Source of the DNA: Rhodothermales bacterium
GTDB taxonomy: Bacteria; Bacteroidota; Rhodothermia; Rhodothermales; Bin80
Reading direction: 5' to 3'
Assembly (NCBI GenBank): GCA_965208025.1
Contig: OZ242302.1
Coordinates: 247,485-311,484, forward strand
DNA: 64,000 bases
The position numbers were made by a program, and so were the translations under genes. Below are positions 18,663 to 52,790 of this stretch, one piece after another. Under the pieces are notes generated by a model. The model had not been told where the DNA came from. It worked only from the letters and a program-made list of their open reading frames with translations, and searched no databases. Within the stretch, counting starts at the first letter, position 1, and each line of letters starts with the position of its first letter.

Positions 18663-19163
18663 ATGAAAGCACATGTGCTTGTGTTAAATCACGACTATAG
18701 TGCACTTACAGTATGTACGGTGCGCCGGGCGGTGATCCTTGTTCACTTAAACAAAGCTGATCTTGTTGAGAGTGCTCCAGACTTTTTTCTCAGGTCACCA
18801 TCCACCACATTTCCGTGTCCCAGTATTGTCAGGCTTCGGGGTTATGTGCGGGTTCCTTATCGAAACATCATGATCTCCCGTAAGAATATCCTCCGAAGAG
18901 ATGGACATCGGTGTCAATTTTGTGGTCGCCGCGAGTCATTAACCGTTGATCATGTACTACCCAAGTCCAGAGGTGGAAAAGATCACTGGACAAACTTGGT
19001 TGCCGCTTGTATATCATGCAATAACCGTAAAGGAGATCGGACTCCCGAGGAGGCAAATATGCCACTTCTTCGCAAACCTTTTCGACCTAGCCATGTCATG
19101 TTTATTCGGGATTATGTTGGTTCCGTCGAAGAGACCTGGAAACCATATTTATTCCTAACCTGA
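18663..19163 (+). CDS. HNH endonuclease family protein
   Basis: CQFCG...TVDHVLPKSRGGKDHWTNLVAACISCNNRKG is a complete HNH/zinc-knuckle signature. Confidence 0.85.
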   Translation: MKAHVLVLNHDYSALTVCTVRRAVILVHLNKADLVESAPDFFLRSPSTTFPCPSIVRLRGYVRVPYRNIMISRKNILRRDGHRCQFCGRRESLTVDHVLPKSRGGKDHWTNLVAACISCNNRKGDRTPEEANMPLLRKPFRPSHVMFIRDYVGSVEETWKPYLFLT

Positions 19164-20699: not shown

Positions 20700-21407
20700 A
20701 TGAAAGATCCCAAAGCATTTAATTTTGATGGCGAATACGGTGAGGAGTACAATGAACTTGCAAGTCGTGTCATCCCTGGATACGATGAGTTATTTGTGGC
20801 CACACTTGCTCTCTTGCAAGAGCGCTTAGGCCCCGAAGCCCGCATATTAATCGTGGGATGCGGAACGGGTCAAGAAATTGAAGTGTTTGCTCCGCAATCT
20901 GAGGGTTGGGAATTTGATTGTGTAGACCCATCCCCCTCTATGGTTGAATTTTCTCGACAGGTAGCTGATCGTATAGGTGTCTCTTCAAGGGTCAACTTCC
21001 ACCATTCATATACTCACGAATTGGGTCATGACAAATTATTCGATGCTGCGACGGTGATCAATGTAATGCACTTTCTCGAGGATGACGGATCTAAGGATGC
21101 TCTAATGCAGAGCGTTGCACAGCGAGTTAAGCCAAGTGGAACGGTAATCCTCTTTGATCTTCATGGAGATCCCGATCAGGCCTATTTCAAATTATTCTAT
21201 GATGCCTGGAAGCGCTATATGGATCTTCGAGGATACACTGGCAAAAAGAAGGAACACCTATTACAAAGACTTGAATCCGGAATCGCTTATGTAGATCAAG
21301 ATCGAATTATTCAGATATGTAGCGATGCAGGTCTGCAATTGATTCATCCTTTCTGGGGCGGGCTGCTTTATACAGGTTGGCTCCTTGAACGAAGTCAAGT
21401 AGCCTAG
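20700..21407 (+). CDS. Class I SAM-dependent methyltransferase
   Basis: Motif I ILIVGCGTGQE, followed by the acidic post-I residue and an NVMHFL block. Confidence 0.75.
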   Translation: MKDPKAFNFDGEYGEEYNELASRVIPGYDELFVATLALLQERLGPEARILIVGCGTGQEIEVFAPQSEGWEFDCVDPSPSMVEFSRQVADRIGVSSRVNFHHSYTHELGHDKLFDAATVINVMHFLEDDGSKDALMQSVAQRVKPSGTVILFDLHGDPDQAYFKLFYDAWKRYMDLRGYTGKKKEHLLQRLESGIAYVDQDRIIQICSDAGLQLIHPFWGGLLYTGWLLERSQVA

Positions 21408-21467
21408 GGGAAGTTCCCCACTCGGCTCTCACAGAACCGTGCGCGAGCCTCTCAACTCACACGGCTT
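21399..21467 (-). ncRNA. Group II intron domain V (21434-21467) and domain VI (21399-21430)
   Basis: The minus strand reads AAGCCGUGUGAGUUGAGAGGCUCGCGCACGGUUC, exactly 34 nt. It has the AGC catalytic triad, a 9-bp lower stem (incl. G-U pairs), a 2-nt 3'-side bulge (GC), a 5-bp upper stem and a GAGA (GNRA) tetraloop. This is the same architecture as the ai5-gamma DV GAGCCGUAUGCGAUGAAAGUCGCACGUACGGUUC. After a UGU linker comes a hairpin, GAGAGCCGAGUGGGGAACUUCCCCUAGGCUAC. It has an unpaired A 7 nt from the end and a terminal AC, as expected for a branch-point DVI and 3' splice site. Confidence 0.85.
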
Positions 21468-22040
21468 TTCCCGTGCAACCCTCTGGAATAAAGGGCTTGG
21501 CATTTTTCGGTGAAGTCCTCCCTTGCGGTTACTCCCTCCCGTCCTGCTGCATGGGTCACTTCCTTCGTTCCACGTTCATTCATATGCTCCTCTGTATCAA
21601 ATCTCCGCACATTGTGCCATCTCACAAACTCATCGGCCATACCTCACGCATTCAAACCTTAAAGTGACCAACTACAGTTGGTGCCACCCGAGTTTGTACA
21701 GCCACGATAGATGTTCACTAGATATGGTCCTATGATACCGAGTCAAAAGGTGAGAGTTAATTGATTGTGGCTTAGCAATCTAAGATATTTGAATGCCCTC
21801 AGAGCCAGAGAGGGTTCTGTTGGTATAGAATGAGAATCCTCTATTTTGAGCAATCACAACGGCATTTCATCGGATGCGTCCGTGTGTAGAACCAATAAAA
21901 TGGAATATGGAGAAGCAAGTTCTCGGTTTGATCATTTGAGCTCCTGTGGTAAAGAACGATTTCCCATAGGTGCCTAGTGGACTTTAACCGAATCAAGTGA
22001 GGATTGAAGGCGAACTATACCATTGCAGGCAGAAATCGCA
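21399..22040 (-). mobile_element. Group II intron RNA, ORF-less or 5'-truncated (3' end well defined, 5' boundary uncertain)
   Basis: Canonical domain V and VI sit at the 3' end (next feature). Further upstream on the minus strand are CCUAUGGGAA (~21975) and GCUAAGCC (~21770), which resemble the two halves of a tetraloop-receptor motif in domain I. No RT/maturase ORF is present. The whole pgk-to-MTase spacer otherwise lacks a credible CDS. Confidence 0.6.
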
Positions 22041-22050
22041 ACATAGAATG

Positions 22051-23271
22051 TCATTGGCGTAGTTCAGTCTGACGATCTGTAAGAACTTCCAGTGCAGGTA
22101 GTTTATCCCCTTCCAAGAACTTGAGCATCGCTCCTCCGCCTGTTGATACATGGGATACTTCTCGGTCAAGGTTCGCCTGTTTGATTGCAGCAACAGAATC
22201 ACCACCACCTACAATGGTTACTGCACCTCTTCCAGTCGCACTAGCCATGGCTCGTGCCATCGCAATTGTACCAGATGAAAATTCTGGGACTTCAAAGACC
22301 CCCATCGGACCATTCCATATACAAGTTTGGGCTTGGCTAATTAAGTCAGAGTAACGAGCTACCGTTTCGGGACCGATATCAAATCCAGACAGACCATCGT
22401 CAATTGATTCTGATAGCGTCTGAGAGGATTGGGGCTCGGAGAGAGAATTGCTGACAACATGATCGCTGGGGAGCAGAAGTTTGCCTTCTGCATGGTCAAG
22501 CATTTCTCGGGCATCAGTTAAGCGATCGTCTTCTACGAGAGAAGTACCAACGGCAATCCCCTTGGCCTTCAGAAAGGTATAGGCCATTGCACCCCCAATA
22601 AGAATATGGTCAACGATTCCCAATAGATTCGTAATCACGCCCATCTTATCCGACACCTTTGCACCTCCCAACAGTGCAACCATTGGCCGGGCAGGAGACT
22701 CGAGAGCATGACCCAGTTGGTTCAATTCTTTTTCCAAGAGAAAACCAGCGGCAGACTGAGAAAAGAGACTGGCTACTCCAACATTTGAAGCATGAGTCCG
22801 ATGTGCTGTACCAAAAGCATCATTCACATAAAGATCTCCAAGTTTCGCAAGTTCGGCCGCAAAAGCAGCATCATTCACCGTTTCTCCAGGAAAGAAACGA
22901 GTATTCTCAAGGAGAATCACGCTTCCATTGGGCATAGTCCGAATTGTCTTCTGGACTACGTTGCCTACGGTTTCACTGGAGAAGCGAAGGCTCGAATTCA
23001 AGAGTTCGCTAAGACGATCGGCAACAGGAGCGAGACTGAACTTCTGGTCGGGTTTCCCTTTGGGACGTCCAAGATGGCTGAGGAGAACTGCTTTCCCCCC
23101 TGCTTCGGTGATCCATTGGATCGTGGGGAGTGCTGCGAGAATTCGAGTATCATCCGCTACATTGTACCGACTGGAATCAGATGATAATTCCAGGGGAACA
23201 TTGAAGTCAACACGGACGAGTACACACTTGCCATGCAAATCCAAGTCTTTAAGTGTTAATTTTTGCATCAA
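22051..23271 (-). CDS. pgk: Phosphoglycerate kinase
   Basis: 406 aa. VLVRVDFNVP, a GRPKG-type block and GGGDS...STGGGA motifs are present. Confidence 0.97.
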   Translation of the reverse strand: MMQKLTLKDLDLHGKCVLVRVDFNVPLELSSDSSRYNVADDTRILAALPTIQWITEAGGKAVLLSHLGRPKGKPDQKFSLAPVADRLSELLNSSLRFSSETVGNVVQKTIRTMPNGSVILLENTRFFPGETVNDAAFAAELAKLGDLYVNDAFGTAHRTHASNVGVASLFSQSAAGFLLEKELNQLGHALESPARPMVALLGGAKVSDKMGVITNLLGIVDHILIGGAMAYTFLKAKGIAVGTSLVEDDRLTDAREMLDHAEGKLLLPSDHVVSNSLSEPQSSQTLSESIDDGLSGFDIGPETVARYSDLISQAQTCIWNGPMGVFEVPEFSSGTIAMARAMASATGRGAVTIVGGGDSVAAIKQANLDREVSHVSTGGGAMLKFLEGDKLPALEVLTDRQTELRQ

Positions 23272-51746: not shown

Positions 51747-52709
51747 ATGAGGTACATCCTTGTAGTCATTGGGTTTGCCGTCAGTATTCAAGTACAGGCT
51801 CAGCCGCGTGCAGATAGTTTGGCTGAAGTATTCATGAGTCCCACGCGGAGTGTTCCCTTGGCGTTTGGGATGTCTGCAATTCTGCCTGGGGCAGGGCAGG
51901 CCTACAATCAAGAATGGATCAAAGCAGGAATTGCTCTCGCTAGCGAAGCCGCTGTACTCCTGCTTTACAGTTCTTGGCGACAACGGGGCATTGATGGGCG
52001 TGATGCATATCAGATTGATGCACATTCTCATTGGAGTCCGGTGCGTTATGCCTATTGGCTCAACGAGTATACGGATTATCTGAATCAACTACCGGATGGA
52101 AGGCCGATCACAGTTTCGCCAGTGGAGATTCCCGAGTTGCTATTCGGGATCAATTTGAATCAGCCTGACACTTGGACACAATCGGAGCAATTGGCCGTCC
52201 GATCACTCATTTTGGAGATTCGGCGGGTAGAGGGTTCGATTTACCATGCCGAAACTGGGGCTGCGTTTTCGCATGTATTACCGTTTTTTGGTGAGCAGCA
52301 GTACTATGAGTTGATTGGCAAGTATTTCCAATATGCTCCTGGCTGGGATGATTATACAGCCTTGATGCGAGATGGACGAATTACATGGATTGACGAGAAT
52401 GGAAATTATATTGCATCCATTGAACCAGAGGCGGGTGAGGCAGGATCAGTTAAACCTCATGTATCGGCCAGATTTTATCAGTATGCAGATGATCATGGGA
52501 ATGCGAATACCTACCTACGAAGGGCTTCACGGATCACGACGCTACTGATTGTGAACCACATGCTCGCTGCTGTTGATGCGGCTGTTTTCTCCCGAATTCA
52601 CAACCGGCGGATCCAATTTGGTTTAGGATTGATGTCAGATCACCAAGGGAGAGCACATATTGCGCCCCATATGCGTTTTTCTCTGAACTCACACTCTGCA
52701 ATTGAATAA
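51747..52709 (+). CDS. Hypothetical protein, DUF5683-like N-terminal segment
   Basis: 320 aa. Signal peptide, then SAILPGAGQAYNQEWIKAGIALASEAAVLLLY, which resembles the Bacteroidota DUF5683 membrane motif. The rest is unassigned. Confidence 0.45.
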   Translation: MRYILVVIGFAVSIQVQAQPRADSLAEVFMSPTRSVPLAFGMSAILPGAGQAYNQEWIKAGIALASEAAVLLLYSSWRQRGIDGRDAYQIDAHSHWSPVRYAYWLNEYTDYLNQLPDGRPITVSPVEIPELLFGINLNQPDTWTQSEQLAVRSLILEIRRVEGSIYHAETGAAFSHVLPFFGEQQYYELIGKYFQYAPGWDDYTALMRDGRITWIDENGNYIASIEPEAGEAGSVKPHVSARFYQYADDHGNANTYLRRASRITTLLIVNHMLAAVDAAVFSRIHNRRIQFGLGLMSDHQGRAHIAPHMRFSLNSHSAIE

Positions 52710-52790
52710 GGGCCATAGGGTGAAATTCTCCTGGGCTATCTGATATATTTAATTCAACAACAGATTAAACCTTCAGAGATTCCCTGCTAT

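Follow-up and report, generated by a model that had tools for sequence, protein, structure and literature searches.

The genes for phosphoglycerate kinase (pgk) and for a class I S-adenosylmethionine (SAM)-dependent methyltransferase converge on a spacer in the 64,000-nucleotide stretch of contig OZ242302.1 (positions 247,485 to 311,484) from a Rhodothermales bacterium that was analysed here. This whole stretch is called the window and positions given without another label are those of the window. At the methyltransferase end of the spacer, on the minus strand, lies a relic of a group II intron. An earlier note on this DNA had described hairpins resembling domains V and VI (DV and DVI) at this place, with no open reading frame (ORF) for a reverse transcriptase (RT), and had read them as either a rare ORF-less intron or a 5'-truncated one. 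The parts of the relic, listed from its 3' end, are as follows.

21394-21430, minus strand: domain VI relic (RF00029; family 3' profile, E = 2e-28), with two helix pairs broken relative to the family
21431-21433, minus strand: DV-DVI linker, UGU, 3 nt (sequence reading and Rfam alignment)
21434-21467, minus strand: domain V, 34 nt (RF00029 at 44.1 bits and family alignment)
21451-21489, minus strand: 3' stub of the RT/maturase ORF, ending ..YSRGLHGKSRVS and a stop codon; overlaps the 5' strand of DV, as in full-length relatives
21490-21552, minus strand: 5' stub of the RT/maturase ORF (DIVa region); 21 codons from an ATG at 21552-21550, reading MQQDGRE, stop, PQGRTSPKNAKPF
21553-21580, minus strand: about 28 nt of ribozyme sequence just upstream of the RT start (end of DIII and 5' side of DIV), from the 5' profile match

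Domains V and VI

The test named in the earlier note, a match of the Rfam model Intron_gpII (RF00029) to the minus strand at 21399-21467, came out in favour of the hairpins. RF00029 matches at 21469-21394 with 44.1 bits against a gathering score of 40 (E = 2e-5 over the whole window and both strands) and this is the sole gathering-level Rfam match in the 64 kb. The segment at 21467-21434 is a canonical 34-nt DV, as had been described. The AGC triad lies at 21466-21464, and a GC bulge of 2 nt separates the lower helix (9 bp) from the upper one (5 bp), which ends in a GNRA-type GAGA loop. The 3-nt linker and the DVI hairpin that had been reported to follow it are also present, with the bulged branch-point A located at 21400, 7 nt from a terminal AC, and a 3' end reading ..CUACUUGAC at 21394. 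A DV-like 34-mer within three mismatches was found in none of 100 shuffles and this, together with the RF00029 match, confirms the identification of DV and DVI. In an alignment of six members of the intron family described below, the DV/DVI fold pairs 96.9% of cells, compared with 36-54% when the partners are slid, and two of the pairs are compensatory in that both sides have changed with a standard pair being kept. The structure can therefore be taken as real for the family. For annotation it should be borne in mind that the RF00029 match covers DV and DVI alone and is not proof of an intron.

The window copy shows several signs of relaxed constraint. The family DV/DVI alignment has five unpaired cells, and three of them are in the window copy, namely the basal DV pair, in which G-C has mutated to A.C (flagged as non-standard in the RF00029 alignment), and the DVI pairs 50-68 and 53-65. 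Its RF00029 score is the lowest among the three copies scanned (44 bits as against 53 and 58) and the RT reading frame carries a premature stop at codon 8 of the 5' stub.

The parent intron family and the extent of homology

A degenerate DV pattern scan over GTDB genomes returned more than 120 loci, and the ranking of these against the window picked out L118 (a Rhodothermales metagenome-assembled genome, OZ219800.1) and L107. L118 contains a complete intron of 1,894 nt on its minus strand at 2896-1003, with the 5' end GUGUGCCACG, Rfam matches to RF01999 (D1-D4, that is, domains I to IV) at 102 bits and to RF00029 at 58 bits, and an ORF of 441 amino acids with RVT_1 and GIIM domains and no endonuclease domain. 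An RT protein search with L118 added the full-length members L126/L127, L128, L130 and L131. The earlier note had recommended looking for full-length copies that carry an RT ORF and share the DV/DVI of the window, and such copies do occur in relatives (L118, L126, L128, L130 and L131). The members of this family are about 1.9 kb long and combine RF01999-type 5' domains and an RF00029 DV/DVI with an endonuclease-less RVT_1 and GIIM protein. Their 5' parts align well from GUGUG onward, and the roughly 490 nt that follow the 5' end are absent from the window. At the intron 3' ends the window and the family share 82-86% nucleotide identity over about 100 nt. A blastn search of plasmids with the spacer gave matches to DV/DVI only, at the 3' ends of annotated ltrA introns, and metagenome pattern scans (for the DIVa/ORF start and for the subfamily DV-DVI) and one viral scan gave no matches.

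Comparison with the family fixes the 3' boundary of the relic. The earlier note had put the 3' splice site at 21399; similarity to the L118, L107, L126, L130 and L131 introns stops exactly after the GAC of CUACUUGAC, at 21394, and the sequence downstream of this point is different in every family copy (alignments of five to six related introns). Position 21394 is confirmed as the intron 3' boundary because family similarity ends there. The minus-strand flank 3' of it reads UUCGUUCAAGG.

On the evidence of homology the intron-derived DNA amounts to 187 nt only, from 21580 to 21394. In this short stretch about 28 nt that precede the RT start are followed by 21 RT codons, a deletion junction, about 12 terminal RT codons overlapping DV, DV itself and DVI. 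Two blastn segments carry the match to L118, window 21571-21490 with L118 2405-2324 (84% identity over 82 nt) and window 21489-21393 with L118 1098-1002 (82% identity). These segments are contiguous in the window, meeting at the junction 21490/21489, and lie 1,225 nt apart in L118. In the family the endpoints of this deletion fall at similar short strings, TTTCCAG and ATTCCA(A/G). The 5' stub corresponds to the family RT N-termini, which read MQ[QR]DARKQP[RK]GRTS..AKPF, and the 3' stub, in a different frame from the 5' stub, ends ..GLHGKSRVS and a stop where family members (P0073, P0074 and P0078) end ..RLHGKSRVS. RT codons from about 22 to 430 are gone from the window copy. As the earlier note had stated, there is no RT ORF in the spacer between pgk and the methyltransferase gene, and a 62-amino-acid ORF has no Pfam match. 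The window is without an RT ORF because the 1,225-nt internal deletion left only stubs of its start and end, and this is not a natural ORF-less architecture.

The 5' limit of homology was defined with a family profile of 582 nucleotide positions, built from five full-length introns and running from GUGUG to RT codon 22. In nhmmer searches this profile matches at its positions 489-579 only, corresponding to 21580-21490 (E = 3e-16), with the limit at about 21580 being accurate to about 10 nt; the 3' family profile matches 21489-21394 (E = 2e-28). Profile positions 1-488, comprising D1, D2 and D3, have no match anywhere in the 64-kb window. The group II D1-D4 models of Rfam, which had also been proposed as a check, were run on 21200-22300 with a cutoff as loose as E <= 10 and gave no match. 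A 5' splice site and domain I of the family are thus absent from the window by both the family profile and the Rfam D1-D4 models (E <= 10). Domains II and III were not found in the window by the family profile, and the alignment of 21572-21760 to D1-D3 of L118 is at shuffle level.

Several further observations concern the family itself. The RF01999 (group-II-D1D4-2) match on L118 lies at 2831-2712, together with a GGGG..CCCC hairpin. It begins about 65 nt inside the intron, whose 5' end is at 2896, and for this reason is no guide to the 5' splice site, which was placed where the family alignment starts. Two full-length copies lie head to tail, 1,899 nt apart, in L126 at about 1900-2000, a region of ena:ERZ23495130 scaffold_380 that L127 shares; their ORFs are at about 26181 and 28080 of the contig. 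The 3' end of one abuts the 5' end of the next with no exon between them (..GGCTACTTGAC/GTGTGCCACG..), which suggests that one intron inserted exactly at the boundary of the other. Close RT variants form clusters of 12-14 members each (P0071, P0077 and P0083, with a listed longest contig of 2,844,637 bp; P0079, with one of 3,584,636 bp), and the common longest contig of such clusters suggests that the family is multi-copy in some relatives. Among the best 120 RT matches none is listed with the contig that holds the methyltransferase gene of the window as its longest contig.

Host genes, insertion site and the GT2 pseudogene

The features that surround the relic are given below.

20700-21407, plus strand: class I SAM-dependent methyltransferase gene (Pfam methyltransferase domains)
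21581-21726, minus strand: filler (about 147 nt) separating the relic from the pseudogene and containing GUGCG at about 21610
21727-22054, minus strand: GT2 glycosyltransferase pseudogene, the first 100-110 codons or so, with three in-frame stops and several indels
22051-23271, minus strand: pgk (Pfam PGK, E = 2e-146), sharing the strand of the relic and lying next to it upstream

A homologue of the methyltransferase, P0002 of genome L001, is 85% identical to that of the window. In L001 the order is methyltransferase, a 564-nt spacer, an intact GT2 gene of 225 amino acids, pgk and gap, and the pgk, gap and methyltransferase genes of the window align with those of L001 at 81-85% identity and gap-free. 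The window has no ORF for GT2. Its segment 22048-21727 nevertheless aligns by blastn with the first half of the L001 GT2 gene at 67% identity with 20 gaps (E = 2e-33), and a tblastn comparison places GT2 residues 1-100 on 22054-21761 in a single frame interrupted by three stops (E = 2e-7). The pseudogene ATG overlaps the pgk TGA, like the GT2 start in L001. By these alignments the segment from 22054 to about 21727 is a decayed GT2 pseudogene, and it takes up about 320 nt of the space that had been proposed for D1-D3.

This bears directly on the 5' features put forward in the earlier note. The pair CCUAUGGGAA and GCUAAGCC, which had been likened to a domain I tetraloop-receptor motif, aligns base for base with the intact GT2 coding sequence of L001, CCUAUGGGAA with the codons P-W-E-I and GCUAAGCC with the L-L-K-Q region. 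UUGCG at about 22041, offered as an approximation to the GUGYG of an intron 5' end, lies in the pseudogene and aligns with the codons V-V-I-P. Coding motifs of GT2 (WEIV... and VVIPTYN) thus pass for one half-site of a tetraloop receptor and for a string close to GUGYG. The second 5' candidate, GUGCG at about 21610, is 30 nt outside the intron homology and the true 5' end of the family is GUGUGCCACG. A separate candidate, ADEFVRWHNVRRF as a derivative of the GT2 motif EDLEIVRQLHRRG, had no tblastn support and was rejected.

The filler (tested as 21581-21760) showed shuffle-level similarity only to D1-D3 of L118, to the remainder of the GT2 gene of L001 with the adjoining spacer and to the spacers of relatives. 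Searches of the window, of 125 loci and of plasmids gave no copies of it, and no collinear GT2 protein match was found.

The site of insertion can be read from the 3' end of the methyltransferase gene. Among homologues conservation extends as far as WL(F/L)ER, and the tails that follow are variable and 0-4 residues long. On the plus strand relatives read GA(A/G)CGG-A..-...-TGA at this point and the window reads GAACGA-A/GTCAAGTAGCCTAG (GTCAAG...), with everything after the slash in the window being the reverse complement of DVI. The methyltransferase of the window therefore ends in the intron-derived residues S-Q-V-A. That the intron overlaps the end of this gene had been correctly anticipated; the extent given, the last three codons, was too short, and the overlap is of 14 nt, made up of two-thirds of a Ser codon, Q, V, A and the TAG stop. 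This stop (21405-21407, plus strand) coincides with the change at DVI column 68 that breaks pair 50-68, where the minus strand has A in the window and C in the family. If this column had the consensus base, the methyltransferase frame would continue for at least 25 more codons through antisense DVI and DV.

Neither intron profile nor Rfam gave a match in L001 or in L122-L125. Since their methyltransferase tails also continue past the insertion point, these five loci are empty sites. The interval between the methyltransferase gene and pgk is a rearrangement hot spot among relatives (window 21394-22054; L001 4706-5963; L122 4706-5319; L123 4706-6196; L124 4706-6053). It holds the intact GT2 gene in L001, a 147-amino-acid GFO/IDH/MocA fragment in L122 and a full GFO/IDH/MocA gene of 428 amino acids in L123; in L124 and L125 it holds a DDE transposase and pgk is no longer adjacent. 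A gene for a 166-amino-acid HNH endonuclease at 18663-19163 (plus strand), 2.2 kb from the relic, is found at the same position in L001, L123 and L124. This gene is not an intron-associated endonuclease, as it is kept at the same position in intron-free relatives.

Origin of the relic and alternative readings

Taken as a whole these data make it very probable that the relic is the fossil of a mobile group II intron, truncated at its 5' end, deprived of almost all of its ORF and no longer functional. This reading is based on direct observations of where homology ends, of the deletion within the intron, of the pseudogene, of empty sites in relatives and of broken base pairs. From them we infer the order and the nature of the deletion events, including whether the 5' part was lost at insertion or later. 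Of the two options in the earlier note, that of a fossil or 5'-truncated intron is borne out and that of an intact ORF-less intron is not, in view of the missing D1-D3 and the GT2 pseudogene.

The parent would have been a member of the 1.9-kb family with a 441-amino-acid RT/maturase lacking an endonuclease domain. The ancestral order would have been pgk, GT2, spacer and methyltransferase, the last being convergent, and a relative still has this order. An intron copy, either full-length or reverse-transcribed in part, may then have inserted on the strand of pgk and GT2, antisense to the methyltransferase gene and one base past its conserved ...ER codons, displacing the short variable tail. All intron sequence on the 5' side of the DIII/DIV boundary, about 490 nt with D1-D3, would have been lost along with the 3' half of GT2 and the spacer, and we prefer a later deletion that also took the spacer and the GT2 3' half over abortive reverse transcription. 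A deletion of 1,225 nt inside domain IV would have removed RT codons from about 22 to 430. The remainder presumably drifts, and the truncated GT2 gene probably decayed into the pseudogene. The history of the locus may thus be put as the intron hitting the end of the methyltransferase gene, GT2 being lost and the intron eroding to 187 nt, with four intron-derived codons left behind. Since it has no 5' splice site, exon-binding sites, D1-D3 scaffold or maturase, the stub is predicted to be unable to splice or move. Its present-day effect would be passive only, in that antisense DVI gives the methyltransferase its last four codons and the mutated DVI position its stop.

Three points weigh against this account. 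The broken pairs number three of 27, which is suggestive of decay and not statistically strong. About 147 nt (21581-21727) between the pseudogene and the relic could not be assigned to a source, and the account therefore stops short of the exact 5' junction and the event behind it. Finally, the search covered 64 kb of the genome, and D1-D3 as a piece of its own, or a full-length copy that is active, could exist elsewhere.

The alternative that survives best places the 5' truncation at the birth of the copy. Target-primed reverse transcription proceeds from the 3' end of the intron RNA. Had it stopped early or changed template close to the DIII/DIV boundary, a truncated copy would have been integrated directly, which corresponds to the 5'-truncated retrohoming product of the earlier note; a template jump of the RT could also account for the ORF deletion. 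This differs from the favoured reading in the timing of the 5' loss only. A 3' end that is precise and complete with a 5' end that is missing is the polarity expected of abortive complementary DNA synthesis, and the similar strings at the deletion endpoints are compatible with template switching. Under such a scheme, however, the displaced methyltransferase tail, its stop and the spacer would be expected 5' of the relic, and 21581-21760 is unlike L001 (although the spacer is poorly conserved). Half of GT2 and the whole spacer are also gone, for which a later deletion across the 5' part of the intron and host DNA is the simpler explanation, and two independent losses together with point decay fit gradual erosion. 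We consider truncation at birth possible and rather unlikely.

It is also conceivable, and in our estimation very improbable, that the fossil stub has been co-opted, either as the 3' half of a trans-splicing intron or as a structured 3' end that terminates or stabilises the convergent pgk and methyltransferase transcripts. If the latter were true, the DVI mutation that creates the methyltransferase stop would have been selected.

An intact, highly divergent ORF-less intron filling the spacer (from about 22041 to 21394), with a maturase from another locus acting in trans to splice or mobilise it, has in its favour that DV/DVI score above the Rfam threshold and that a spacer of about 650 nt is within the size range of ORF-less introns. 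A passage in PMC4028801 describes such bacterial introns as exceptions. Even so, D1-D4 models find no match at E <= 10 and positions 1-488 of the family profile are absent; 22054 to about 21727 is collinear with GT2 coding sequence, including the motifs proposed as domain I and as the 5' splice site; and the minimum free energy fold of the spacer (657 nt, a single sequence) is no better than shuffles (z = +0.39). The RT stubs around the 1,225-nt deletion indicate secondary loss. Judged by the homology map, an intact ORF-less intron is refuted, and we give it next to no credence.

Equally hard to credit is the reading of the relic as the 3' half of a split, trans-splicing group II intron, broken in domain IV, whose D1-D3 half would lie elsewhere in the genome. 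The surviving piece does begin at the DIII/DIV boundary and keep DIVa, DV and DVI, as the usual 3' half in trans-splicing does, and engineered bacterial introns tolerate fragmentation (PMC3410883). Its 3' flank, however, is antisense to the methyltransferase gene and offers no ORF to complete, three changes break helices in DV/DVI including the basal DV pair, D1-D3 are absent from the 64-kb window, and the best 120 RT matches do not include one listed with the window's methyltransferase contig as its longest contig. That a chance pair of GC-rich hairpins happens to score on RF00029, only 4 bits over the gathering threshold, is a negligible prospect already refuted, to judge by the 82-86% identity over about 100 nt to bona fide intron 3' ends, the 84% over 82 nt to a DIVa/ORF start and the profile E-values of 2e-28 and 3e-16.

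Set beside its full-length relatives, the relic is 82-86% identical in DIVa, the ORF termini, DV and DVI, shares the 3' end CUACUUGAC and likewise has an RT stop codon that overlaps DV; unlike them it is without D1-D3 and RT codons from about 22 to 430 and has an early stop and three broken DV/DVI pairs. Simon et al. 2008 (RNA 14:1704) reportedly treat natural ORF-less group II introns of bacteria. Such introns resemble the relic in having no RT ORF in domain IV and in keeping DV/DVI, and a passage in PMC4028801 describes them as retaining all six domains. They have complete D1-D6 and both splice sites, whereas the relic has neither D1-D3 nor a 5' splice site.

A closer parallel is offered by intron remnants. 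Truncated copies make up the majority of bacterial group II intron copies (Abebe et al., 2013; PMC4028801), and long-lived remnants have been described in intergenic regions, beside housekeeping genes, in Sinorhizobium (Toro et al., 2014; PMC4181065). The RmInt1-related remnant FRE652 of Sinorhizobium is, like the relic, an inactive and eroding remnant next to housekeeping genes, and the relic is, like such remnants, absent from related genomes and situated in a region rearranged between relatives. RmInt1 tends to fragment by losing its 3' terminus (PMC4181065), and in this the relic differs, as it has kept its 3' terminus and lost the 5' ribozyme and also has a clean internal ORF deletion. 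Because truncation is the majority state of bacterial group II introns (PMC4028801), there is nothing unexpected in the relic, which is an unannotated new instance of a well-known kind and an ordinary mobile-element fossil.

A DVI-like hairpin, AGGGCC..GGGCTATCTGAT, was also detected at 52709-52746 (plus strand), right after the stop of an ORF at 51747-52709 (nhmmer E = 0.0015). No DV precedes it and Rfam gives no match, and it is probably a chance or terminator-like structure and at most a second, smaller relic.

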